64,000 bases of DNA from an uncultured Gammaproteobacteria bacterium (lineage in GTDB: Bacteria > Patescibacteriota > Patescibacteriia > Magasanikbacterales > GWA2-37-8), in assembly GCA_964444705.1 (NCBI GenBank), contig CAYUHX010000001.1, forward strand, positions 17,055-81,054. Reading direction: 5' to 3'. This document shows, in pieces, positions 4,643-29,435 of this stretch; positions within the stretch are counted from its first letter, which is position 1, and each line of letters opens with the position of its first letter. Both the position numbers and the translations under genes were made by a program. Below the pieces are notes generated by a model. It ran no database searches. It saw nothing but the letters and a program-made list of their open reading frames with translations, and had not been told where the DNA came from.

Positions 4643-4728
4643 ACACCAAAGTTACGAATATTTACTGCATTCTAGCAAACAAAAACCCGCCTTTCAATAG
4701 CGAAAGGCGGGTTGTGTTATTTTGGCTT

Positions 4729-7700
4729 CTACATGCCCAAGGCAGCCCTGGTCACCGAACCAACCTGGCCATTGACGGGTGTAATTTTATTTTTCTTTTG
4801 AAAGGCTTGGACAGCTTTTGTAGTAGCCGGACCAAAAATTCCGTTAATAGTGGTTGTTTTTGGGAAAAACCCAAGCTCTTGCAATTTCTTTTGCAGAATC
4901 ATTATTTCTTCTCCTTTCATCCCTGATTTAAGAATGCTTGGAGTCTTTTTTGGTGTCGGCGCAACCTCAACCACGAAATCAAATGAATTCTCATCGAGCA
5001 TCTCGCCAGTCGCTTTATCAGATATCTCTACGCGCATAGAGTACACTCCGTTTGGGATATTTTTCTTAAGCGCCTGTTGAATTGAGAAGTCAGCTCGCTT
5101 GCCTTTTTTAAGCTCTTTTTGAAGAGAACTATCGACAATAACGACACCATTCTGATCAATAAGCTGGCGATGAATTACTAACTTTTGAGTTTTAGCGGTT
5201 GAATTTTTATAATTGTATTTAAACGAAAGCGTCGTCCCTGGTCGTACCAATTTACCTGTTTTTGGTAATCCAGAAAAAATAATTGCCGAAGTTTCGTTGG
5301 TTGGCCTGAAAGATCGCAGAACCAAAGATTCATCTACAGATGGAACCACGGCCGTTTGGACAGTCTTAATTGGAACCATCGGCACAGTAGTCACAGTACT
5401 TGTCATTAAACTTGTACTGGTAGAAATTGCCACTGCAGTAGACGAACTGGCAATGGTGGTAGTCACAGTGGTCACAACATTAACCATAGATCCACCACCT
5501 CCGCTTCCACCACTTGATCCACCACTACCACCCGATCCTCCAGAACCACCATCACCACTACCCGATGAAGGGGTGTAGGCAATCACGAAGTCGGTAAAGT
5601 GATTGACCAAACCGGTAATGGTGTTATTCGTCGCATCGATAGTAAACCCGCCTTCAACCGGCACATACGCACCCGTTTCTGGAGATAAATACATCAGTTT
5701 TAAATCACTTTCAGCTACTCCCGAAGGAACTTGCGCCACCAAGTCACTATAACTAAGCTGCACTTCCGCATTACCATTCAAACTTTTGATCGTCGAATCC
5801 CCCGTAGCAGAAATTTTAAATGAAGCATTTCCGAGCGGAGTGAATCCTTCGGTTTTAGGAGCAGTATAATTTTTCTCGAGAGAAATGGTGACGTTACCAG
5901 AACCTGTCTCTAATACTCCCGAACCAGCTGTAAGCTTAATACCACTCGCCCCACTATCATTGACCGAACCACCAGAACTTGCGTCTACCACCCCACTCGT
6001 TGAGGTTGGTATTTTGGAGCTGTCACTGGTTAAATTAAAGTTATTGCCTGTGGAATTAGCACTCGTGATCACCACGGTGCCTGATTTTGCAGTTTGAGCA
6101 TGCTTAGGGCCAACGCCAGTGAGCGTCCAGGTGCCTGTCGTTACCGGAATTGAATAACTACCATCCGCAGGATTGATCGCTCCCGTGACAATTAAGCCGG
6201 CCGTATTTTCAGCCCACACATACCCGCTCGATAACGCCACTCCGTTTGAATCTCTAAGTACACCTTCAATCGTTTTGCCGGCTGTCTGTAAGGCCGCCTG
6301 ATCAGGGTCAGAGCCACCAAAATCGTACGCGTTAGTATTAGTACTAAATGAAACCAATTTTACCGTTTCACCAGGCACATACCCAGCCAAACTAGCACCA
6401 ACCTGATAGGTGCCTGCTTTCATATTCACGCTATAGGTACCGCTCGCATTAGTAACACCAGTTTCTATCACTCCCGTTGAAGTATTGGTAAAAGTAACCA
6501 CCGTTCCTGATAAAACAGCACCAGTATCATCTTTAATGGTTCCTGTAACGGTGATAAACCCGTTAGCTTGGAGCCCCAGGTTAATTGTCGCTGTTGCGCC
6601 CGATGCTACAGCGCCATTGAATCTACCCACACCAAATACGTCGACGAAATAATTATACGTCGCACCATTTTCAGTAGTAATTACCAAACTAGAATTAAGG
6701 CCATCTTTTTGGGTACGAATCACTTTGGTAGCGTCGGTCGCATTGCGGAGTTCCACCATGGTTTGCATGGCAGCGGTACCTCCGGTAAACACAAAGGTAA
6801 CGGTGCTAGTGGCAGTAACCGACACATTTTGTGTGGTATCTGCGCTTGATACTACTTTAGTAGCACTAAGTTCACCATATGTTGGACTCCATGTTCCCAC
6901 ACGGTACGTTTTACTTCCCTCCACTTTCATGGAATAAGCTCCGCTACTATCGGTTGAACCACCTTTGCGGATACCACCTGGAACCGGCGCATTACTACCA
7001 CTATTCCATTCCTCAAGGAAAATTGGTACATTTGCGAGCCCGGAACCACCAACACTCACCGTGCCACTTAAAGTATAACAAGTGCTTACGGAAGGACTAA
7101 TATTTTGGCTCGATTTACTTTCCGTACTCACCGTAACGGTAAGTGAGAAAGAACCACACGCATCACTTTTATCTGGTGGTAGCTGACTTTGCACATTCCA
7201 AGTGCCAGCATCCACAAACACACTATAACTACCATCTGAACCGCTCTTACCCGGAATCGATTCACCAGTAGACGCATTTACCGCAAACACCGGTGCATAC
7301 GCAATACCATTACCACTCGCATCAAGCACTTTACCAGAAATAGTATACGAAGATTTTTTAATACTGATCAGCAAAGGATTGGCATTGGTAATTTGTTTGC
7401 CCAGATAATAAATATCTGGATCGCTGCCCGCATCAGCACCGTCTGGTTTAATCTCTAGCTGTTTAAATGTCGGTGGTAAACCATCTTTCATTACACCAAT
7501 TTCATAGGACCCATAATCGCCAACCGCTAAACTAAATGTTCCTGATGCATTAGTTGAACCAAATGCGGGAGCGCCAAAACCCTGTCGATGCATGAATACT
7601 TCCATGTTACTAAGACCATTTTGAGAACCATCGACCACCTTACCGGTCACCGTCTTGTCCGCAGTCACAAAGGTGAAGGTTACAGTGTCAGTGCCATCAT

Positions 7701-10700
7701 TAAAAGCAACTCCCGGTGGCATTACGCCTCCAGCAGCAGTTACCGCCGGCGTATCGCCACCAATACCACTTACCACTAACTGAACTTGCGCAGGTGGCAT
7801 GCCTGGCAACGAAGTTGGTTTTGCACCAGTGCCATTTGATCCCTTTGGCATAGAAGGACCAACACCAAGTGACCACTGCCCATTGGCCGGTAATTTTACC
7901 GTATAACCATTCGCATCAGGAGTCGTAACCCCAGTTAATGTTTTAACCACAAACCGTCCAGGGCCACTGGCAAAAATATCTATATCACTACCACCAAAAT
8001 TTGAAATTCCGGCAAATTTAACAGTGGTGGTCACGGAAGCACCATTGGCACTCGCCGAGGTAAGTACGATATTTTTTGTTGAGGTGGTATTGCCGTTGAC
8101 ACAAATCGGCTCCGGACTCATCTGGCCAAAATAATCAGTACTACCCAAGGTAACAAACGGATCAGTATTCACAAAGTAACACCCGCTCGCAAGACCCGAA
8201 AGGCGTACCGTTGTTGCCGCACTCCCATCAACTTGCGAAATAATACCCGAAGCTAAAGTCACTCGCTTATTAATAGGGCCTGCGGGGCCGCCACCAAACA
8301 AATTCACCGTTCCGGCTACGTTATCGGGACTCCCCGAGCTGCCAGCATACAAATTAACCACAATCGTGTTTGTGCCTGCTGCCTGAATGAAATAGGGCAT
8401 GCTGGTTTTATTCACAATCGTCGTACTGCTTCGCACAATTTTTATTCCCACGGTATAACCACCGGTAGATGGATCTTTAGGAACAGCTGGGTTGATAATT
8501 TTTTTAAGATCTAAGGTATAGTTATCGCCTGACCCTGGAGTGCCCGATACCCCCAGCGTCACCGTTACTTTTTGCGTGGCACTATCTGCAACAAGCGTTG
8601 TTCCGGTTACGGTTCCGCTACCAAATTGATTTAGGTCTTTAACAAAAGGTGAATTACTATCAAGGGCTGCATTAGTAACGTCAGTGCCGTTCGGGAATGT
8701 GACGACTACCTGATCACCATTTTGAATAGCAATTCCAGGATTAAATCGCACTTGAAACACATTTGAATCTTGGCCAGCCATCTGCGAGAAAGGAAATGCC
8801 GTATCAGCCTGACCAAGCGCAAATTGCTCTGGAGTGAAGGTGCCAAACCCTTGAGGTTTAAACTGTTCACCCACGCCGCCCGCACCGGCTACCGGCGGAC
8901 CAAACATACCCTGGTCGCCAAAACCACCATACGTTTGCGTACTGTCTTCAACCTTACCGCTCGCAGAAACATTACCAAGATTGTTAGCTGACAAATCTTT
9001 AAGTCCACTCAGTGACAAAGAATACGTACCCCCTTTGGTGAGCGCCAGACCTTTAATCACAAGCGCGTTGCGCGGAAAATCATACGAAATAGCTGTAGAA
9101 GTGACCACTAAATCCGGTCCCGAATTTTGGGTAAGGGTAATATTTACATGGTTAAGCACACTGCTTGTCCAATTCGGATCAACCTGTGTGTCGTTATTCA
9201 TTGGCTCATTAAACACTACATTGCAGGTAAAATCATCACAGCGCGACTCTACTAAAGCTGGGGCGGTCGTATCACTAGCACCAGTAGTATAGGTAAGAGT
9301 AGTGGTAGCAAGTGCATTGCCCGGCAAATCGGTCACGGCAGGAGCAAACGTGATGGTGTACACCGTGCTCGGGGTGAGCACACGTGACGGCGCAAGAAGC
9401 ACACTGTTTTTGCCCGCATCATACTTCACCTGAATACCAACCGCCGTACTTCCCCGACTCATGGTGATATTCGTGGTGTTAATGGTATTAAAATTTAATG
9501 GTTCACTAAAACCAAACTCAAACACTTTACTTACCGATACACCCGTGGCATTGCTCGCCAAAAGTGGGTAAAGCACCGGTGGTGTTACATCGTTTGATCC
9601 CGAGACTTTGAAAAAAGAAGTAAACGACACCTGAGCCAATTCAGCGCTAGGGCGCATAGTGATACCACTCGTGGTACCCACCGCGCCTTTTACTCTTACT
9701 TCATACTCATGCCCAGCGGTGAGGGCGCTGCTTGGCGCGAGCGACACAAACCGTTTTTCAGTAGAGTCAAGACTGACCGTGCTTAACGAAACTTGACCAT
9801 TCGTAGTTTTGTCAAAAAGAACAATGTTTGTAGAATTAACCGTGGTTGAATCAAGCGCTTGGTTAAACTCCAAGGTTATTTTCGCGTTTGGCGCTACGCT
9901 TACTCCTGGACCAGGATTCATTGATTTGACAAACGGCGGCATGAATTGCCCGCTTGATCCCAACGTAAATGAACCAGAATCAAACGTGCCTCGATTGGTG
10001 GTAAACGAAATTTTGTGCCCGCCACCAGACCGATTTCCTTGAATTGACTGGCCGCCTTGACTAGTAACTCCTTCGGTAATTACCAAAGTATAAAAAGTAT
10101 TGGTGGCTAAATTACTGGTTGGGTTAAACAAAATTACATTAGAATCACCGGCAAAAAGTGCTGAACAACCAGGGGAACTACTGTTTTCACAATAAGTAAC
10201 CGAACCCGCTACTTTTGTTGTTCCTCCATCGGGGGTCAAATACACGCTCGTACTCGCGTCTGTCGGGTCAGTATCGTTGATTGAGCTTGCGGCCATTGTT
10301 TGCGATAAGCCGACTCTAATTTTTTCACCCACCGCCACATCGGTTGCTGCATCTGGTGGGCCAGAAAAAACCACCATGGGCGCACCGCCCCCTGCCGCAC
10401 CACCACCGACGACAAAACTACAATTGCCTGGGTTTAAAGAAAAATTAATACCACTAAGGTTGACACTTCCAAGCACTTCTCCAAATCGAGTATTTTCACA
10501 AAAATTATTTTTAAAAGCCGTGACATCTAGTGTCAAATTAGCAGGATAGGAGGTTAAAGAATAATTACCACTACCATCGGTGGTTACTGAAGGCTTGGCA
10601 ATACCTCCCGCAAATACCCGCGCACCAGACAAAGCGGCCCCGCCCGAAATAACCGTACCAGAAATAGATCTACCAAACGCCGTACGTACCGTTACTACAA

Positions 10701-11565
10701 ACGGAGCTGCTTGGCAGGCCGCATGACTATTGGCATTCGGCGCAGAACAAAAGAAACGCAGATTTCCAGCCCGATCTTTCGCCGCCAAATAATATTGAAA
10801 AGTACCTCCCGAACTTGGCACATCTCCTGAGGGAATAGTCAGCGTAAATAATTTTCCTTCAACCTGTACCGCATCAACCGTCGTTGAGGCTACCGTTAAA
10901 TCTGAACCATAATACACTCTTACAAATTCTCCACCACCATCAGTAGTACTTGCAAACTGCATATCCAACGTCTGATCATCAGTCACAAAAGTATTTAATA
11001 CTGCATTCTGCCCCGAGAGCGCCACATAGGCAGGAAAATGACTTATAAATGGTGCATTGGTATCTGCCACATTGTCGTAAGCACCGGCATACGACACCGC
11101 ACTTGAAGACACGATTGTTGGCTCGGTTGAGGATACATAAATCCAGGCAACATATGAAGTATTGGTAGTCCAAGATTGACCATTGCTATCTTTGGTCATA
11201 AACTGCGGCACGACAAATTCATTCATGCTGTGTTGATTAAAAAAACCCATTGGCACACACTGATTGCCCGGCGAACCCGTACATGCACTATTAAGGGTGC
11301 TTGTGGTAAGAGTGAGTGTGCTTGAAACAATAAAAATTTTGGTATTCTCATACCCCGCAGGCTGAGACCCAGGAGTCCAGGTTACCCTAAAATCGCGCCC
11401 ATCTAAACCAAACCCAGTGGTATCCGGGTCATTCAGCACTACCCCCGAAACCGCTTGAGCCACAAAAGGATAAATGAGTAGACCTGCCAAAAGAGCTCCC
11501 GCAAACAACATAATCCCTAAATTTTTTTTCTGCCTACCCCACCATGAAAGCCAAATATGTTTCAT
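4729..11565 (-). CDS. giant secreted/cell-surface protein (2278 aa) with multiple Ig-like/carboxypeptidase-regulatory-like beta-sandwich repeats and a C-terminal peptidoglycan-binding domain
   Basis: N-terminal signal/TM (LGIMLFAGALLAGLLIYPFVAQA). Many repeats of the GxVxDxxGxxxxxAxVxxxxxxxxTDxxGxY type. Gly/Ser linker SGSGDGGSGGSGGSGGSSGGSGGGGS followed by a Thr-rich stalk. C-terminal PG_binding_1-like module LQKKLQELGFFPKTTTINGIFGPATTKAVQAFQKKNKIT. One uninterrupted 6.8-kb frame. Confidence 0.8.
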   Translation of the reverse strand: MKHIWLSWWGRQKKNLGIMLFAGALLAGLLIYPFVAQAVSGVVLNDPDTTGFGLDGRDFRVTWTPGSQPAGYENTKIFIVSSTLTLTTSTLNSACTGSPGNQCVPMGFFNQHSMNEFVVPQFMTKDSNGQSWTTNTSYVAWIYVSSTEPTIVSSSAVSYAGAYDNVADTNAPFISHFPAYVALSGQNAVLNTFVTDDQTLDMQFASTTDGGGEFVRVYYGSDLTVASTTVDAVQVEGKLFTLTIPSGDVPSSGGTFQYYLAAKDRAGNLRFFCSAPNANSHAACQAAPFVVTVRTAFGRSISGTVISGGAALSGARVFAGGIAKPSVTTDGSGNYSLTSYPANLTLDVTAFKNNFCENTRFGEVLGSVNLSGINFSLNPGNCSFVVGGGAAGGGAPMVVFSGPPDAATDVAVGEKIRVGLSQTMAASSINDTDPTDASTSVYLTPDGGTTKVAGSVTYCENSSSPGCSALFAGDSNVILFNPTSNLATNTFYTLVITEGVTSQGGQSIQGNRSGGGHKISFTTNRGTFDSGSFTLGSSGQFMPPFVKSMNPGPGVSVAPNAKITLEFNQALDSTTVNSTNIVLFDKTTNGQVSLSTVSLDSTEKRFVSLAPSSALTAGHEYEVRVKGAVGTTSGITMRPSAELAQVSFTSFFKVSGSNDVTPPVLYPLLASNATGVSVSKVFEFGFSEPLNFNTINTTNITMSRGSTAVGIQVKYDAGKNSVLLAPSRVLTPSTVYTITFAPAVTDLPGNALATTTLTYTTGASDTTAPALVESRCDDFTCNVVFNEPMNNDTQVDPNWTSSVLNHVNITLTQNSGPDLVVTSTAISYDFPRNALVIKGLALTKGGTYSLSLSGLKDLSANNLGNVSASGKVEDSTQTYGGFGDQGMFGPPVAGAGGVGEQFKPQGFGTFTPEQFALGQADTAFPFSQMAGQDSNVFQVRFNPGIAIQNGDQVVVTFPNGTDVTNAALDSNSPFVKDLNQFGSGTVTGTTLVADSATQKVTVTLGVSGTPGSGDNYTLDLKKIINPAVPKDPSTGGYTVGIKIVRSSTTIVNKTSMPYFIQAAGTNTIVVNLYAGSSGSPDNVAGTVNLFGGGPAGPINKRVTLASGIISQVDGSAATTVRLSGLASGCYFVNTDPFVTLGSTDYFGQMSPEPICVNGNTTSTKNIVLTSASANGASVTTTVKFAGISNFGGSDIDIFASGPGRFVVKTLTGVTTPDANGYTVKLPANGQWSLGVGPSMPKGSNGTGAKPTSLPGMPPAQVQLVVSGIGGDTPAVTAAGGVMPPGVAFNDGTDTVTFTFVTADKTVTGKVVDGSQNGLSNMEVFMHRQGFGAPAFGSTNASGTFSLAVGDYGSYEIGVMKDGLPPTFKQLEIKPDGADAGSDPDIYYLGKQITNANPLLISIKKSSYTISGKVLDASGNGIAYAPVFAVNASTGESIPGKSGSDGSYSVFVDAGTWNVQSQLPPDKSDACGSFSLTVTVSTESKSSQNISPSVSTCYTLSGTVSVGGSGLANVPIFLEEWNSGSNAPVPGGIRKGGSTDSSGAYSMKVEGSKTYRVGTWSPTYGELSATKVVSSADTTQNVSVTATSTVTFVFTGGTAAMQTMVELRNATDATKVIRTQKDGLNSSLVITTENGATYNYFVDVFGVGRFNGAVASGATATINLGLQANGFITVTGTIKDDTGAVLSGTVVTFTNTSTGVIETGVTNASGTYSVNMKAGTYQVGASLAGYVPGETVKLVSFSTNTNAYDFGGSDPDQAALQTAGKTIEGVLRDSNGVALSSGYVWAENTAGLIVTGAINPADGSYSIPVTTGTWTLTGVGPKHAQTAKSGTVVITSANSTGNNFNLTSDSSKIPTSTSGVVDASSGGSVNDSGASGIKLTAGSGVLETGSGNVTISLEKNYTAPKTEGFTPLGNASFKISATGDSTIKSLNGNAEVQLSYSDLVAQVPSGVAESDLKLMYLSPETGAYVPVEGGFTIDATNNTITGLVNHFTDFVIAYTPSSGSGDGGSGGSGGSGGSSGGSGGGGSMVNVVTTVTTTIASSSTAVAISTSTSLMTSTVTTVPMVPIKTVQTAVVPSVDESLVLRSFRPTNETSAIIFSGLPKTGKLVRPGTTLSFKYNYKNSTAKTQKLVIHRQLIDQNGVVIVDSSLQKELKKGKRADFSIQQALKKNIPNGVYSMRVEISDKATGEMLDENSFDFVVEVAPTPKKTPSILKSGMKGEEIMILQKKLQELGFFPKTTTINGIFGPATTKAVQAFQKKNKITPVNGQVGSVTRAALGM
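5489..5570. repeat. low-complexity GGT/GGA-type simple repeat encoding the Gly/Ser linker of the giant protein
   Basis: Runs of tccacc/accacc triplets on the + strand (= GGx codons on the - strand). Confidence 0.5.
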
Positions 11566-12168
11566 ACTACTGTGTTAATAAAAAATAAATTTAAAAATAA
11601 AAATATAACCGTGATGGTTATATCGGCCCTCCCTTTTTTAAATTAGTAAAAAAATGTGTTCCCCTCCCTTGATTCATCTGATTTTGAAATTAAAACCGTA
11701 TGAACATACTTAGTATACACCAAAAAAAGCAAACAAAAAATCTCTGTGGATAAATATTTTTTCTTTAAAGAAAAAATTCCTGTCACACAACTGCAATATA
11801 TAGTGTACACATTTATTTTTAAAAAGAATTATATATCTCGTCGTATCATAAAAAATTAAGCGTTGGAACGCTTGGTTTGCTGTTGATCGCACTCCTGAAA
11901 TGAGTTAACCTGAAAGCAAAAAGTCGCCCGCCTATCGACATTTCAACTGAATCAAAACTTCAAACAATTTAAAAACACAATGCGAAGCGGTGAAAAAAAA
12001 CGCATGTCGATTTCTCCTGATACCAAACAATGCTTCAAACTCATTCGAGGCACAATCAACATTATAAATCACACAACGAATCATTCAAACCAGCGATGAC
12101 ATTGACATACTCAACCAAAACCTGCGCAGTACCTTGGATGTACTTCAAATGGGATTCTAAAAAAGTCC

Positions 12169-12200
12169 AAAAAACCACCTGAAATACAGGTGGTTTTTTT
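12169..12200 (-). terminator. rho-independent terminator downstream of tsf (palindromic, A/T-flanked, bidirectional)
   Basis: AAAAAACCACCTGaaatacAGGTGGTTTTTTT: 9-bp GC-containing stem flanked by A-run and T-run. Confidence 0.6.
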
Positions 12201-12221
12201 AAATTTTTTCTTCAGTAAATA

Positions 12222-12899: not shown

Positions 12900-13721
12900 T
12901 TATACGCTTTCCGCAATTTGCAAAGCGCGTTTTTCTTTCTTGGGAGCAAGATCTTTAGATGTTTTGTCAGCACTTGGTGCTTTGGCTTTCTCAACTACCG
13001 GCATTTCTTCTTTCATCATAGCTTTTTTCTTTTCTGCTTCAAGCTTACCTTCGTTCACCGCTTCAGCCATAAGATCGGCAATCATTTTGATGGCATTAAC
13101 CGCGTCATCATTGGCAGGAATAGGAAACGCCACCTTGGTTGGGTCAACATTGGAATCACTCACCGCAATTACTGGCACCTCAGTCTTTCTTGATTCAGTG
13201 ATCGCTGTTTTTTCAACGCGCATGTCGGCAATGTAGAGCGCATCAGGAATTTTTTCGAGACTGGTTAAACCAACCAAATATTTATCCATCTTCTCAATCA
13301 TTTTCTTCAAAACAGCTTGTTCTTTTTTGGTATATTTTTCAATCTCACCGGTGGCAACCTGCTCTTTGAGACCACGATATTTAACGAGTCGTCGTTTGCA
13401 TTCAGGAAAGTTGGTTAAAAGTCCACCAATCCAGCGTTCAACCACATATGGCATACCACAACGTTCGGCGGCATCTTTCACAAATGTGCGAGCCTGACGC
13501 TTAGTACCCACAAACAAAATAACTTTACCTTTGCTGGCCAAATCTTTCACATGGGCCAACACTTTTACCAATTCATCGGTGGTTTTTTCAAGATCAATAA
13601 CATGAATACCATTACGGACACCGAAAAGATACGGCTCCATTTTAGGGTGCCAACGTGAACTTTGGTGACCAAAGTGCACTCCGGCCTTAAGCATCTCAAC
13701 GAGAGATGGAATTTGTGGCAT
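12900..13721 (-). CDS. rpsB: 30S ribosomal protein S2
   Basis: MLKAGVHFGHQSSRWHPKMEPYLFGVRNGIHVIDLEKT is a canonical S2 N-terminus. Acidic and Lys-rich C-terminal tail. Confidence 0.92.
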   Translation of the reverse strand: MPQIPSLVEMLKAGVHFGHQSSRWHPKMEPYLFGVRNGIHVIDLEKTTDELVKVLAHVKDLASKGKVILFVGTKRQARTFVKDAAERCGMPYVVERWIGGLLTNFPECKRRLVKYRGLKEQVATGEIEKYTKKEQAVLKKMIEKMDKYLVGLTSLEKIPDALYIADMRVEKTAITESRKTEVPVIAVSDSNVDPTKVAFPIPANDDAVNAIKMIADLMAEAVNEGKLEAEKKKAMMKEEMPVVEKAKAPSADKTSKDLAPKKEKRALQIAESV

Positions 13722-13975
13722 AGATTTTCCTTATTAGTTCCTCTCAGCCATGCCCCGAGGGTGGCCCCAGGGAGGAAAAAATCAAGAACGAGTGCTCTTG
13801 AGACTGATGCGGAGATAAATAAAAGTGCGTAAACTATAGCTAAATTAAGGATTAAAGTCAAGAGTCATGTTCAAACACAAGACTCTATTTACATTTTTTA
13901 ATTTTGGAGTATACCTATATTCATTCCCGCCAGCCAAATCGGCTGGTAATCAGGAAGGGAAGGAGGTGAAGAAAA

Positions 13976-14131
13976 ATGTTGACGAAGGCGCTCGCATGCC
14001 TCACTCTTCTAGCCCTGTTAGCGCAAAGCGCAGTGGCAGTGGCATGCAACTGTAACAAAAAAAGTCGCGATTATTGCGGCGACAACCAGTGCATGAAGAC
14101 GGAGTCAGACAAGCCAAGAAAGAAGAAATAG
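13976..14131 (+). CDS. small secreted Cys-rich peptide (51 aa), unannotated
   Basis: Strong SD GGAAGGAGGTG 6 nt upstream of the ATG. Signal peptide MLTKALACLTLLALLAQSAVAVA followed by CNCNKKSRDYCGDNQCMKTESDKPRKKK (4 Cys, basic tail). Followed by two hairpins (14196-14235 and 14262-14290). Confidence 0.4.
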   Translation: MLTKALACLTLLALLAQSAVAVACNCNKKSRDYCGDNQCMKTESDKPRKKK

Positions 14132-14261
14132 GCTTGTCTGATTCTGCTTCAAACCTCCACACAAACATCTTAAGCCCCACGCACCCTTCCTGTCTACTAT
14201 GAACGCGCCTGAAATCAAGCGCCTTCATAGTAGAACCCAACTTCAATCGTAAATAAAAGAG

Positions 14262-14290
14262 TTTTACAAAAAACTCTTTTATTATTTTAA
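14262..14290. terminator. bidirectional hairpin terminator between the small peptide ORF (+) and acylphosphatase (-)
   Basis: AAAAGAGTTTTacaaaAAACTCTTTT flanked by A/T runs on both sides. Confidence 0.5.
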
Positions 14291-14595
14291 TGGCTCACAA
14301 ATTCTAAAAAACGCTCTTGCATAGATTGCCATTCAATCGTGACGCTGTGCACCCGAGCAGTCGGCGGCCCTATTTTGAGTAGCTTTATATAGTTTTCTAC
14401 CACCACCTTTTGCCCTTGCACCACCACGTTTACCCCACCTTCTTTCGTATTTTCAACCATACCCACCAATCCCATTTTCTTTCCTTCGGTGCGAGCAAAT
14501 TGACGAAAAAATACTCCCTGTACTCTCCCCGCAATGTGTATCTGTGCTTGCGCCATCTCGCCTGCAGCAACGTTTTTTATTTTTTGTTCCTTCAT
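14287..14595 (-). CDS. acyP: acylphosphatase (start uncertain: Met at 14595 or 14556; the 14679 ATG of the ORF track is probably too long)
   Basis: Acylphosphatase signatures IAGRVQGVFFRQF and GLVGMVENTKEGGVNVVVQG, then GPPTARV. Domain is about 90 aa. Confidence 0.7.
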   Translation of the reverse strand: MKEQKIKNVAAGEMAQAQIHIAGRVQGVFFRQFARTEGKKMGLVGMVENTKEGGVNVVVQGQKVVVENYIKLLKIGPPTARVHSVTIEWQSMQERFLEFVSH

Positions 14596-14679
14596 AATCA
14601 GTATTAAAAAATTGATTTTAAACCACCCCATATTATGTGTTATACTTACAGTATACAAAAAATAAATTACTGAGATCAA

Positions 14680-15495
14680 TTGCGTATGCTTAGAGAAGGG
14701 GGGCCAGCATTAACTGATTTTTTTGTCACCACACAACCCACAACTATTAAAAGAAGAAGAAACCCATCTACAACACAAAAAGAGACAGCTTTTTTTTCAA
14801 GTTCTTCTACACGGCGAACCAAATCTTCTTCATTGCACAAAAGAAGAACACCCAACAACTTTCCTGAGCGGCGAAGAAGAAAAATCATACCAGCTGAACC
14901 AAGCGAAATTCCTCCTGCCCTTCTGCCAAACACTCTTCGCAGAACAACGGAACAACGTTATTTTCACGTTAAAAATGGCGGTTATCTCCCTATTCAAAAT
15001 GGTTGCGTCGTTGTTGGTGACCACATCATTGATATTCAAACATTAAAAACCAAAGAGACCCATTTACTGAGCACGCTTAACTCAAAAATTGCGAAACTTG
15101 CCACAAGCGACCTCGGGCATGAGTTGCTTGCTCGAGCGGGAATACAAAATCAAACCGACTGTACTCTTAACCAAATTTTTATCATTGCCGGCATCAGTGA
15201 CCTCGTACCACTTCAAACTGAAGGAATTATTTTTGACCCTCTCGATCTCGACCGACTACACAACATACTTCTTCGTGAAAAAAATGCCACCCAACAAAAA
15301 TTAGCTGATTTTAAAAAAGAAACACTTCGCACTAATCGACGATCCTTTTCTCTATTAAACCGAATTACCCACCGCTTCTTTTCCGGCCGTTCCAAAATAC
15401 CAAAAGAGAAAGCAGTGCTTGATGCACGGCATACCAAAGAATTAGAACAAAAATTAGCAGCTCTTCAACTCATTGAGATTGTCTTGACGGTGTGA
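14680..15495 (+). CDS. hypothetical protein with Arg/Ser/Thr-rich basic N-terminal region (271 aa)
   Basis: Long open frame divergent from acyP. No internal Met. No recognizable motif. Confidence 0.45.
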   Translation: MRMLREGGPALTDFFVTTQPTTIKRRRNPSTTQKETAFFSSSSTRRTKSSSLHKRRTPNNFPERRRRKIIPAEPSEIPPALLPNTLRRTTEQRYFHVKNGGYLPIQNGCVVVGDHIIDIQTLKTKETHLLSTLNSKIAKLATSDLGHELLARAGIQNQTDCTLNQIFIIAGISDLVPLQTEGIIFDPLDLDRLHNILLREKNATQQKLADFKKETLRTNRRSFSLLNRITHRFFSGRSKIPKEKAVLDARHTKELEQKLAALQLIEIVLTV

Positions 15496-23984: not shown

Positions 23985-24057
23985 GCGCCTGTAGCTCAGG
24001 GGTTAGAGCGCCACCCTTATAAGGTGGATGTCGATGGTTCAATTCCATCCAGGCGCA
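23985..24057 (+). tRNA. tRNA-Ile with anticodon UAU (TAT)
   Basis: Manual cloverleaf fold: 7-bp acceptor GCGCCTG/CAGGCGC, D-stem GCTC/GAGC, anticodon stem CCACC/GGTGG with loop CTTATAA (U33, anticodon TAT, A37), T-stem GATGG/CCATC with loop TTCAATT, discriminator A73. No CCA encoded. Candidate promoter TTGAAT-17-TAGACT about 60 nt upstream. Confidence 0.85.
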
Positions 24058-24083: not shown

Positions 24084-24437
24084 ATGCCTCTCACCTCTCT
24101 TCCTCTGGCCGGCGGAATGAAATTTGGTTCAGGCGCAAATTTGGGTCGAACCGGAATGCCTCCTTCACGCGTCGGCGGCATCGGTAGTATCAACCAAGCA
24201 AAAGGAGGTGCTCTCACCAGTGCCAGTAACCTAGGCAAAAAAATGAACAGCATTAGTCAAAATCAGGGCATAGCTCATGTGTACCAAGTCGGCGATCGCA
24301 CCGGTGTGCAGGGCGCTGGCGGATATGCGGGGCAAGGTAGCAATGTGAGTATTGCTCAAGCCATTAAAAATAAATCTCTCACTCCTCCCGGAACAACCAC
24401 CACCGGCGGAGTAAAACCGATTCTTCCACTTAAATAA
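24084..24437 (+). CDS. hypothetical Gly-rich small protein (117 aa)
   Basis: Open frame only. Composition slightly GC-richer than its surroundings. No SD. Confidence 0.3.
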   Translation: MPLTSLPLAGGMKFGSGANLGRTGMPPSRVGGIGSINQAKGGALTSASNLGKKMNSISQNQGIAHVYQVGDRTGVQGAGGYAGQGSNVSIAQAIKNKSLTPPGTTTTGGVKPILPLK

Positions 24438-26493: not shown

Positions 26494-26509
26494 CAAAGCA
26501 CACCAAATC

Positions 26510-26540
26510 AAAAAAACAGGGTTTAAACCCTGTTTTTTTG
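26510..26540 (+). terminator. rho-independent terminator after rplS
   Basis: AAAAAAACAGGGTTTAAACCCTGTTTTTTT, a perfect palindromic hairpin plus T-run. Confidence 0.65.
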
Positions 26541-26579
26541 ATAAGAAGAAGTTCACAAATAGGCATTGCCGTGATTATC

Positions 26580-26627: not shown

Positions 26628-29360
26628 ATGAAAAAATCAATTTTAGTAATCCTTACTTTCTCTTTATTTTGCCAATTAGCACCCGTCGAAGCCTTTTCAT
26701 TAAGCAGTGCCGAATCCTTCGCAAATATTCGTTTGTCAAAACCACTCAACTCTCCCGACCTGCGCACTCCGCTCAAAACACCATTATTTTCTCCACAGTC
26801 AAACAGCACAAACCCCGCCGAACAAGAAAATGTTCCAAAAGATTCTTGGTATTACAGCAAGGAATACACGGCTCCCGATGAAAATTTTTTATTTGAAACT
26901 AATTTACGTATTGATGAACAAGCTACCCAACGCTTGCCCATTGAACAAGATTTAAAAGGAATGGATTATAATAATCAAGAAAATATCGGTGGATACGAAG
27001 CTGCTTTAGTGATGCGCCAGTCCGGCACCAACGATCGCTATCGGGCCATGTTTTCTTCCACTTGGAAAGAAATATTAATATGGTCGAGTCGCGGCGGTAT
27101 TTTGGCGGTGAAACCTTTTGCATTTGATCCGGGCGTGACGTATAAAGTTTCGTTTGCCAAACACGGCAACCGTTTGTTAGTAGCTGTCAATGACAAAACT
27201 ATTGTTTCGTTGATTGATCGTACCACTCCCATCAAAGTTGACCGTTACGGCTTGGCCACCAAAGAAGGCATCGTGTGGTTTTCTAGAATAAAATCCAAAA
27301 CGCTTACCGGCTCCATTTCTCGTTTGGATACTTCGGTGCATGTGGCTAATTTTTCTTTACGCACTTGGAAAGGTGTTACATGGGGATTTGATGGCGACGA
27401 ACCTATTTTTGCCTTACCGAATCGTACCGCTTTTGCTTCGGAAGTAAAATTGGTGCCAGGGTACGCGGCGCAAATGGCCCTGCAATGGTACATCCAAAAT
27501 TGGGTAGACGAAGCATTTCGTACGGATATTGTAACTAACATTGAAGAACATGAAAAAGGTACTAAATTAAGCTTTACTATTACGAGTAAAGATGAAACCA
27601 ATCGAACAGATTTAATCAACAAAACCAAAGTAACCGTGAGTTATGACGAAGCCAAAAATGTGTATGTGTATGATCATGTCAGTGAGCTCATTGTTCCTGC
27701 TGGATCAAATTTACGGATGAGCTATCCACTTGATATTGCGGATCCGGTATTTTTACAATCAGTTCCCTCCGGAAGTACTTACGGCCGACAATGGCCGGTA
27801 ACGCACCAATGGGGAGCATACCAACACCCTGATGGTAATTATTATAAACAGCCTTTTAATCACGCCGATTGGTATCCAGGCTACGGTACTCAGGAATTTT
27901 GGAATAAAGGCATGCACAAAATGAAAGCCGATGGCGGTTCGTGGGCTTTGGTGGGCGACAGGATCGCTAATCCAGTATTACAATGGAACGAATCACCGAC
28001 GCGCAATGAATTTAGCGCGCTTGTCTGCTGGTTCGCTTACGACCTGCATTTTAATTGGATGCCAGGAGATGGTAGCCCCGTTACCTTGCCAAGTGGTACA
28101 TATACCTTTAAATGGAGCGTATCTTCGCTTCCTGGAGATGAAGCCGATGCTCGCTTAAGCTCGGCGAAATATGCGGTGGAAGGCGACATGAGCTTAAAAT
28201 GGTTGCTTTATACTGGTGGCGTGGGTCATGTCGAAAAATTTGATAAAACCGCTTTACGAGCTTCACCGTTTGGAGAGTATATCTGGGGAGATAGCGCCTA
28301 TCAAGACACTGCTGTTGGCTATGATGATACTACCTCACTACGCCTGGAAGGTCCGGATTTTGTAAAAACCTCAGCGGGCGATAGCATGTTTACCGAGTCA
28401 TTTTTGCCGGACACTGACTATGAAATTTCTGCGTGGATAAAAACTGAAAATGTGCAGGGCAAGGGCCCCGGCATCATCTTTAGCGGGCAGCCCTATTATC
28501 CCGGTATCACCGGCACTACCGACTGGCAACAAATTGGCTTCGTGGCTCGCCCGCAAGAGCCGCTTTATTCGGTGCCGTTCTTTTTACACAATGCCGGTTC
28601 GGGCAAGGTATGGTTCGACAACTTCCAGATTCGCCCTATTACTGCCGTGAATCCAGTCGCGCTAAACTTAAACAATCGTCCTCGCCCTATTGCCAAAGGA
28701 ATTGCCATAGATCCAAACGCCTATTTGATTCTTGATCCAAAAAATGCGCTGACAGATGCGGCGCGCACCGTTCTGGATGGTTCAAATCGCCAAAATAACG
28801 GCGTGTTACAAAATGCGACAGTCGAAACAGTAGCAGAAAACAAGATATTCCGTTTCCGCGGCAACGACGCGCAAGTTTTGATGCGCGGGCATGAAAGCAC
28901 GGATTTTTCGGCTCCTGCCACCTTGGTCACCTGGATCAAACCGGGAACCGGTGTAAATGGCTGGAACGTGGTGGCGAGCGGTGGCATTGATCGGGCCGAT
29001 TATTGGCGTATTATTCTCAGCAAAGTAGATGATTATCGATTAGCCGTACACACGCCAGGAGGCACAATTGATGGTAGCGGTACGATTGTGCCAGAAGGCG
29101 TCTGGTCGCAATTGGCCTTGGTTGACGATGGCACTACCGCATCATTCTATTTCAATGATACGCTGGTTGGTACCACGCCTTCCAATGGGAATATTTTTGG
29201 CAAAGGCCCAACCGGGTATGTGCGATTAGGGGCCATGTCCTATGAAGGGCGGCCGACTTCAGGAGTTGAAGGTGATGTGAGCGCGCTCACTATTTTCACC
29301 AAAGCTTGGAGTGCGGAGGAAATAAAAGCGAGCTATCTAAAAGGACCGTTTGGATTATAG
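26628..29360 (+). CDS. large secreted protein (910 aa) with concanavalin-A-like/LamG-type and CBM-like beta-sandwich domains
   Basis: Signal peptide MKKSILVILTFSLFCQLAPVEAFS. C-terminal LamG-like pattern (TLVTWIKPG...WSQLALVDDGTTASFYFNDTLVG...GDVSALTIFTKAWSAEEI). Central CBM_4_9-like segment (DYEISAWIKTENVQGKG...VWFDNFQIRPI). Confidence 0.7.
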   Translation: MKKSILVILTFSLFCQLAPVEAFSLSSAESFANIRLSKPLNSPDLRTPLKTPLFSPQSNSTNPAEQENVPKDSWYYSKEYTAPDENFLFETNLRIDEQATQRLPIEQDLKGMDYNNQENIGGYEAALVMRQSGTNDRYRAMFSSTWKEILIWSSRGGILAVKPFAFDPGVTYKVSFAKHGNRLLVAVNDKTIVSLIDRTTPIKVDRYGLATKEGIVWFSRIKSKTLTGSISRLDTSVHVANFSLRTWKGVTWGFDGDEPIFALPNRTAFASEVKLVPGYAAQMALQWYIQNWVDEAFRTDIVTNIEEHEKGTKLSFTITSKDETNRTDLINKTKVTVSYDEAKNVYVYDHVSELIVPAGSNLRMSYPLDIADPVFLQSVPSGSTYGRQWPVTHQWGAYQHPDGNYYKQPFNHADWYPGYGTQEFWNKGMHKMKADGGSWALVGDRIANPVLQWNESPTRNEFSALVCWFAYDLHFNWMPGDGSPVTLPSGTYTFKWSVSSLPGDEADARLSSAKYAVEGDMSLKWLLYTGGVGHVEKFDKTALRASPFGEYIWGDSAYQDTAVGYDDTTSLRLEGPDFVKTSAGDSMFTESFLPDTDYEISAWIKTENVQGKGPGIIFSGQPYYPGITGTTDWQQIGFVARPQEPLYSVPFFLHNAGSGKVWFDNFQIRPITAVNPVALNLNNRPRPIAKGIAIDPNAYLILDPKNALTDAARTVLDGSNRQNNGVLQNATVETVAENKIFRFRGNDAQVLMRGHESTDFSAPATLVTWIKPGTGVNGWNVVASGGIDRADYWRIILSKVDDYRLAVHTPGGTIDGSGTIVPEGVWSQLALVDDGTTASFYFNDTLVGTTPSNGNIFGKGPTGYVRLGAMSYEGRPTSGVEGDVSALTIFTKAWSAEEIKASYLKGPFGL

Positions 29361-29435
29361 ATGCAACAATTTTTTAACGAATTAAAAACAGCGATAATTT
29401 TTCTATCGCTGTTTTTTAATTAATATTACTTTTTA

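Follow-up and report, generated by a model that had tools for sequence, protein, structure and literature searches.

In the annotation of CPR bacteria small ORFs are systematically missed, and the locus analyzed here raises the question whether the 565-nt gap between rpsB and acyP contains such a missed gene or only a chance reading frame in an intergenic region rich in structure. The gap lies in the window, i.e. the whole 64-kb stretch of DNA that was analyzed. A preliminary description had pointed in this gap to an unannotated frame of 51 codons, preceded by a textbook Shine-Dalgarno (SD) sequence and encoding a signal peptide and a short Cys-rich mature part. On the basis of sequence comparison we propose that 13976-14131 is a real, independently transcribed small gene, missed in annotation, for an exported cationic peptide with four Cys residues, and we assign to this reading a probability of about 75%.

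The small ORF runs away from rpsB and towards acyP, both of which are on the minus strand (Table 1), and its translation gave exactly the 51-aa sequence described before. The product is absent from a collection of 5.8 billion proteins; the S2 protein of the same genome (P0006, an NCBI entry on a 139-kb contig) is present there, so the ORF has never been called in the source annotation. According to Pfam, the neighbouring genes have housekeeping functions (EF-Ts, S2, AcyP, GyrB, NusG, QueA and YceG), and no transporter, immunity or regulator gene is adjacent. Neither a radical-SAM enzyme nor any other maturase is encoded within about 10 kb, and no NCBIfam family matches, as would be expected for a RiPP precursor of the SCIFF/ranthipeptide kind.

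The gap itself is exceptional in length. Among 119 relatives, rpsB and the next ORF of 90 aa or more are separated by a median of 206 nt, and nowhere by as much as 565 nt; the gap being longer than in 119 of 119 relatives, about 360 nt of extra sequence are therefore present here, which corresponds to the size of the proposed transcription unit (about 370 nt). The ORF track lists in this region an overlapping 62-aa frame (13867-14055), which was rejected as not conserved, with stop codons in that frame in the contig that carries the homologue described below. The codon usage of the small ORF is not gene-like: the log-likelihood per codon amounts to -0.12, as compared with -0.07 for spurious ORFs and +0.30 ± 0.13 for the real genes of the genome. 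Such a value fits horizontal acquisition or an odd amino-acid composition, yet it counts as a negative result.

Table 1 Features of the rpsB-acyP region in the coordinates of the window
Feature	Coordinates	Strand	Basis and remarks
rpsB	12900-13721	-	Pfam
rpsB promoter-like site (13861..13833) and conserved rpsB 5' leader	13722..13861	-	promoter scan, alignment; occupy the left part of the gap
Possible promoter of the small gene, TTTACA-16 nt-TATACC	13888..13915	+	read from sequence; weak, low confidence
5' leader hairpin, GCCAGCC-AAAUC-GGCUGGU	13929..13947	+	predicted fold
Translation-initiation region: AATCAGGAAG, then AAGGAGGTGA, then A-rich spacer	13948..13975	+	conserved in contig L161
Small ORF, 51 aa	13976..14131	+	sequence reading, ORF translation
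Codons 1-23, predicted Sec-type signal peptide MLTKALACLTLLALLAQSAVAVA	13976..14044	+	n/h/c regions read from sequence
Four-Cys core CNCNKKSRDYCGDNQC, C-x-C-x7-C-x4-C	14045..14092	+	comparison with P0003
Lys-rich charged tail MKTESDKPRKKK and TAG stop	14093..14131	+	translation; P0003 tail longer, Lys-rich
Hairpin spanning the stop codon, 20-bp stem, loop AAGAAAGAAGAAAUA	14095..14150	+	dG -30.5 kcal/mol, z -8.0, reached by 0/200 shuffles
3'-UTR pyrimidine blocks ACCTCC (14153-58) and CCCTTCCTG (14184-92)	14153..14192	+	complement SD GGAGGT and leader CAGGAAGGG
Second 3'-UTR hairpin, stem of 11, 4 and 2 bp with a C.C mismatch after the first 11	14193..14234	+	dG -23 kcal/mol, z -9.5
Bidirectional intrinsic terminator, perfect 14-bp AT-rich stem (14252-14283), A-run/T-run flanks	14252..14290	both	dG -12.9 (+) and -12.8 (-) kcal/mol
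acyP	14287-14679	-	Pfam acylphosphatase domain over residues 46-127

When 1.84 billion representative proteins were searched exhaustively by phmmer with the window peptide as a query, five matches below E 1e-3 were obtained. Four of them, long and repetitive proteins matched partially at several places, were discarded as spurious. The one true homologue, P0003 (MQKKAAALIALLGILITTTTMAWAEPCNCRRSSKNYCGDNQCADTSKNDKKEPEKKQGKK; 60 aa), was matched with E 7.1e-5 and 49% identity over nearly the full length. It has the same architecture as the window peptide, consisting of a signal peptide, a CNC-x6-YCGDNQC core and a Lys-rich tail; all four Cys residues and the heptad YCGDNQC are identical in both proteins, and the mature parts alone gave E 1.3e-12 in pairwise BLASTP. 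The gene for P0003 is known from one Logan contig of 1,021 bp (L161, run SRR13208893), where it is located divergently from the 5' end of a PBP1A-family gene and not beside rpsB; the GC content is 44.8% for this contig and 44.7% for the window. The family has two members, and its conservation is that seen in a single pairwise comparison. In the same contig, between 945 and 1021, a second strong SD sequence (TAAGGAGGTAAAA) is found about 40 nt 3' of the stop codon of the homologue, followed by TTG and an ORF beginning with MQEVATCHRHSS that is cut by the contig end. This second element opens with another copy of CAGGAAG, with which CUUCCUG (998-1004) could form a local hairpin; the window has no counterpart of this downstream ORF.

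The features of a cleavable signal peptide, claimed in the preliminary description for the window peptide, were recovered by sequence rules in both family members. The n-region is positively charged (K4 in the window peptide, K3 and K4 in P0003). The h-region is uncharged and comprises 12 residues in each case (ALACLTLLALLA, A5-A16, in the window peptide and AAALIALLGILI in P0003), which falls within the expected range of about 7-15 residues, and its best Kyte-Doolittle mean over 10 residues amounts to 2.82 and 3.19, respectively. In the c-region small residues occupy positions -3 and -1 and there is no Pro at +1, the predicted cut (marked by a slash) being QS-AVA/VA or AVA/C in the window peptide and TTTTM-AWA/EP in P0003. 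The signal peptide of P0003 can thus be divided into MQKK, AAALIALLGILI and TTTTMAWA/EP; in the window peptide the h-region is followed by QSAVAVA, whose AxA sites permit cleavage after A21 or A23. The mature part of 28 residues, with four Cys and a KPRKKK tail, was also found as reported. Depending on the site of cleavage, the mature window peptide would have 28-30 residues and a net charge of +5, and that of P0003 36 residues and +4, with four Cys in each. Both peptides are without a match in Pfam, NCBIfam or PDB (E <= 1-10) and showed no homology to a described bacteriocin family there. The AlphaFold2 model built on the two-sequence alignment (pLDDT 58) was uninformative.

The homologue made it possible to examine the coding signature in a codon-by-codon alignment of the two genes, evaluated according to Nei-Gojobori. 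Identical residues occupy 24 of 51 aligned positions, and 14 of these 24 are encoded by different codons. The value of pS was 0.97 (saturated) versus pN of 0.36 for the whole ORF, 0.24 for the Cys core and 0.41 for the signal peptide, the last of which suggests that hydrophobicity is kept there rather than sequence. In the core 10 of 16 residues are identical, six of these ten with different codons. Nucleotide identity of the ORFs is 52%, and the three indels that separate them, each of 9 nt, are in frame; the other two frames of the same alignment contain stops in both sequences and show 10-12 identities in 50 positions. Saturated pS combined with low pN, the in-frame indels, the broken alternative frames and the conserved leader (see below) therefore argue for a genuine, self-contained small gene. 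It had been proposed beforehand that lack of conservation of the frame, with substitutions neutral at third positions, or lack of a predicted signal peptide would speak against the gene. The pattern observed is the opposite of the former, and by sequence rules both proteins have the regions of a signal peptide.

All other searches for relatives were negative within their scope. The word-index protein search with the window peptide and P0003 as queries returned only the queries themselves, and scans for the peptide in genome and metagenome contigs gave no confirmed case among the 600 pattern matches listed for each. At 160 rpsB loci from genomes and metagenomes, where S2 identity is at best about 67-72%, there was no acyP neighbour, no tblastn or HMM match and no analogous ORF upstream of rpsB, and the classical dN/dS analysis of orthologues was ruled out since none of these loci has a syntenic orthologue. 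Searches with S2 place the window in a Magasanikbacteria-like lineage of the CPR (Patescibacteria). The synteny tests failed because the collections searched contain no close relative of this genome: the best relatives from species-representative genomes, JGI metagenomes and the 5.8-billion-protein collection show about 67-76% identity in S2, and the S2 search of the last collection returned the genome itself, with all other proteins at most 76% identical. Viral contigs, phages and plasmids gave nothing, or chance matches to YCGDNQC in unrelated frames, and no relevant literature was found on the motif or on secreted Cys-rich peptides of CPR bacteria.

The SD sequence, previously singled out as a textbook one, was borne out by its complementarity: AAGGAGGTGA at 13960-13969, 6 nt 5' of the ATG, is complementary without mismatch over 10 nt to the usual 3' end of 16S rRNA, and this 10-mer occurs once in the window when both strands are considered (128 kb in total). 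Before the real genes of this genome strong SD sequences are seldom found, GGAGG preceding ORFs of at least 100 aa in 9 of 66 cases in the whole window, and rpsB itself has AAGGAAA; the perfect SD of the small gene is thus an outlier and not the genomic norm. The combination of a 10-nt SD, a signal-peptide-like start and four Cys was found only for the small ORF and the P0003 gene in about 1 Mb of CPR sequence searched on both strands. The only other AGGAGGTG in the window is located at 24203-24210 (+), about 150 nt 3' of the tRNA gene at 23985-24057; only a 4-codon frame comes after it, and AGGAGG is present on the opposite strand at 24164.

The whole leader of the small gene is shared with the homologue. 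Upstream of the ATG 38 of 56 nt are identical in L161, with about 25 of 28 in the last 28, and the two leaders have in common a hairpin, AATCAGGAAG, two variable bases and AAGGAGGTGAA-N-AAAAATG. In L161 the hairpin reads GCCAGUG-AGUA-UACUGGC and occupies the same place, two loop-proximal pairs being altered on both sides. When the window leader alone was used as an nhmmer query against about 2 Mb, the best non-self match was that in L161 (E 0.067, the next one having E 15), and it falls exactly upstream of the homologous ATG. P0003 had been found by protein similarity alone, and the conservation of the leader DNA is an independent confirmation of the homology. No other copy of the leader motif was detected in the window, at the other 160 rpsB loci or in viral contigs (IMG/VR). 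A structured covariance model of the leader was dropped, the two hairpins being offset in the alignment, and nhmmer was used instead. The possible promoter of the small gene would stand back to back with the rpsB promoter-like site (Table 1). It aligns with TTGATT-17-TAAAGA of L161 at an equal distance from the leader hairpin; the consensus promoter scan found no convincing sigma-70 promoter on the + strand and did not flag this site.

Downstream of the Cys core three hairpins are predicted. The strongest one spans the stop codon and was missed in the preliminary description; its loop contains the RKKK codons and the stop codon, it is not followed by a U-run and has no counterpart in L161, being lineage-specific. 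The hairpin at 14193-14234, also devoid of a U-run, had been reported as a perfect 14-bp hairpin at 14196-14235: the hairpin is real, but its stem is interrupted by a C.C mismatch and the coordinates had to be corrected. No other copy of it exists in the window, so it does not represent a repeated element. Since the two hairpins without U-runs are not conserved in L161, they are not a feature of the family. For the third one, the terminator placed earlier at 14262-14290, the assignment as a terminator held and the position of the stem did not (Table 1). The stem begins 3 nt past the acyP stop codon (14287-14289) and has T-rich tails on both sides; with a stable stem-loop and a U-run at the gene end, 14252-14290 is an ordinary bidirectional intrinsic terminator common to the small gene (+) and acyP (-), of the A-run/stem/T-run class to which hairpins at other gene ends (12159-12209, 29384-29416 and 4684-4713) also belong. 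The terminator scan was silent at this site because the stem has fewer than three G-C pairs. The layout of the locus, with divergent promoters and a shared terminator of the type usual in this genome, is coherent. The longest inverted repeat of the window lies elsewhere, just 5' of the 910-aa ORF at 26628, and is a perfect 22-nt palindrome (ATCAAAAAAACAGGGTTTAAAC/GTTTAAACCCTGTTTTTTTGAT; 26507-26542).

The predicted transcript as a whole folds exceptionally strongly (-142.5 kcal/mol, z -10), and its leader is predicted to pair with the pyrimidine blocks of the 3' UTR. The pairing probability is about 1.0 for CAGGAAGGG:CCCUUCCUG and 0.94 for GGAGGU:ACCUCC, whichever 5' end is assumed, and the SD is only 16% unpaired in the full-length fold. 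In an energy-based control with dinucleotide-shuffled 3' UTRs, 18 of 200 equalled or exceeded the observed pairing of the leader in the window and 22 of 200 in L161. As 9% of the shuffled UTRs pair as fully as the native one in the window, the pairing seems to be largely driven by composition. L161 contains 3' of the stop codon a perfect complement of the same invariant 7-mer of the leader, found in 0.5% of shuffled pairs (p about 0.005, post hoc); for this CUUCCUG a closer local partner is available. We consider the 'mRNA lock' formed by the leader and the 3' UTR an unproven lead suggested by modeling and not a finding.

Several other readings of the locus have to be weighed against these data. 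In one of them the ORF would have arisen by chance in a regulatory or structured intergenic region, where what matters are RNA or DNA elements (hairpins, control of rpsB and acyP, or a small RNA). The codon usage, the unusual richness of the region in stable hairpins, the omission from the source annotation and the lack of an orthologue in related genomes are all consistent with it. Nevertheless, we hold it to be highly improbable, as it appears to be largely refuted already by the homologue and the coding signature: amino acids are kept at 52% nucleotide identity, with saturated synonymous sites, in-frame indels and stops in the other frames, and it is the SD and the ATG that are conserved in L161 and not the downstream hairpins. 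No Rfam family came near the threshold at this locus. Very unlikely, in our estimation, is also a module resembling type I toxins, in which a membrane-active peptide would be encoded by an mRNA silenced through pairing of its 3' UTR with the leader and the SD, possibly together with an antisense antitoxin. Type I toxins are usually narrowly distributed and unannotated, as the small gene is, and the peptide shares with Hok/Gef proteins (PF01848) a size of about 50 aa, a hydrophobic N-terminal segment and Cys in a charged C-terminal part, along with a folded mRNA whose predicted 5'-3' pairing covers the SD; the complement of the leader 7-mer present downstream in L161 and a 9/12 promoter-like site at 14196..14167 (-) can be read in the same direction. 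However, the pairing stays within what composition gives in both sequences, the L161 element has its nearer partner, and the stop-spanning hairpin is not conserved. The conservation concerns the soluble Cys core and not the hydrophobic segment, which carries cleavable AxA sites in both members. The peptide matches neither PF01848 nor any other Pfam toxin family (Ldr, Fst and TisB included), and no antisense RNA is evident: near the 14196..14167 (-) site there is no terminator for it and no match to an RNA family.

The fate of the N-terminal segment allows for another explanation, namely that the product is a membrane-tethered small protein, held either by an uncleaved anchor, possibly with the basic four-Cys part inside the cell binding metal, or as a lipoprotein lipidated at Cys24. 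The difference in net charge (+5 for the C-terminal part, +1 for the N-terminus) would favour a C-in orientation according to the positive-inside rule, and C-x-C...C-x4-C resembles a metal site, which is likelier in the cytoplasm. The core of the h-region, limited to 12 residues in both members, is on the other hand short for a transmembrane helix, and the polar c-region (QS or TTTT) with AxA that follows it is typical of a cleaved signal peptide. As for the lipoprotein variant, the window peptide has the size of small lipoproteins (entericidin- or Lpp-like; PROSITE PS51257) and its signal ends with ...AVAVA-C, placing Cys at +1. In the comparison with the lipobox pattern, A-V-A-C fitted a relaxed lipobox only and A-E-P-C of P0003, with Pro at -1 to Cys, was incompatible, so that a lipobox [LVI][ASTVI][GAS]-C for signal peptidase II is not conserved in the family, and the Cys would be a part of the folded core rather than a lipidation site. 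Because AWAEP-C of the homologue cannot be a lipobox, we prefer cleavage by signal peptidase I for the family and regard tethering in either form as unlikely.

For the exported peptide we can thus outline the following course of events. Transcription would start near 13922 from the promoter standing back to back with that of rpsB, and the mRNA would open with the conserved short hairpin followed by the unusually strong ribosome-binding site, whose 10-nt SD should ensure efficient initiation at ATG 13976. The product would be exported by the Sec system; judging from sequence rules and the AWA/EP site of the homologue, signal peptidase I would cleave it behind AVA (A21 or A23) and release a peptide of 28-30 residues with a net charge of +5. 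The functional part would be the 16-residue C-x-C-x7-C-x4-C core, the most conserved segment, probably held together by a pair of disulfides or by a single tetrathiolate metal site; it may be speculated that the disordered Lys-rich tail binds anionic surfaces. Transcription would stop at the bidirectional terminator common with the convergent acyP. The gene with its own leader seems to behave as a self-contained cassette, and its occurrence in two unrelated genomic contexts together with the atypical codon usage and GC content suggests horizontal mobility.

The most likely role is an extracellular one, as a cationic antimicrobial or surface-binding peptide, but this is a guess that we would expect to fail considerably more often than to hold. 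Among the nearest known systems are the Sec-dependent, disulfide-containing cationic bacteriocins of monoderm bacteria, such as enterocin P-type class II bacteriocins, bactofencin and defensin-like peptides. Compared from their general description, they likewise have a small Sec precursor and a short cationic mature peptide stabilized by Cys, and likewise are encoded by a gene that stands alone, has strong signals for translation and is patchily distributed. The small gene differs from them in the lack of similarity in Pfam, NCBIfam and PDB, in the spacing of its Cys residues and in its CPR host; the immunity, transporter or modification genes adjacent in bacteriocin clusters are absent both here, where the neighbours are housekeeping genes, and in L161, with its PBP1A gene. 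The animal two-disulfide beta-hairpins protegrin and tachyplesin, which can serve as an analogy only, are also short and strongly cationic with four Cys including C-x-C; they are of unrelated origin, and the Cys spacing of the window peptide is asymmetric. The small gene founds a tiny unnamed family of two members, although the general kind, i.e. small Cys-rich peptides with signal peptides, is already known. A broader proposal, which we rate as rather unlikely, would see in this gene the founder of a new family: cationic mini-proteins with four Cys, highly expressed and exported via Sec, which would be encoded on a self-contained mobile cassette (leader, SD and ORF, all conserved) and would act for a CPR episymbiont as antimicrobial or adhesion effectors on the surface of a host or competitor, with expression possibly gated by conserved CAGGAAG:CUUCCUG pairing of the leader with the 3' region.

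Some other features of the window were recorded during this analysis. The 5' leader of rpsB (13722-13861, -) is conserved in all 20 of the Magasanikbacteria-type loci aligned and contains an invariant UUUUCCUCC (anti-SD-like CCUCC) as well as an invariant GAGG...AUAAGGAAA...UAUG. Its long-range stem (ACU-CAUCAG / CUGAGAGG-type) shows double-sided compensatory changes in 6 of 9 pairs, and a variable terminator-like hairpin with a U-run is located at 13801..13782. The rpsB leader matched no Rfam family and probably serves CPR bacteria for the autoregulation of S2. Between acyP and gyrB a candidate TTG-start ORF of 271 aa without a Pfam domain (14680-15495, +) was noticed, the N-terminal third of which is very basic and rich in Ser, Thr and Arg. 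An ORF of 2,278 aa (4729-11565, -) in which CarboxypepD_reg and Big_5 domains recur and a PG_binding_1 domain stands at the C-terminus probably encodes a giant cell-surface protein typical of CPR episymbionts.

CPR bacteria (Patescibacteria) have tiny genomes and depend on other cells; to our knowledge, the molecules that they export toward hosts or competitors are largely unknown. At the locus described here annotation has missed a gene for which the support is good, whose expression signals are unusually strong and whose conserved Cys core has no known family. Its practical significance is modest at present, since this orphan family has two members so far. Should the peptide act on other cells, it would provide, with its 28-30 aa, a tractable and synthesisable handle on the interaction between CPR bacteria and their hosts.
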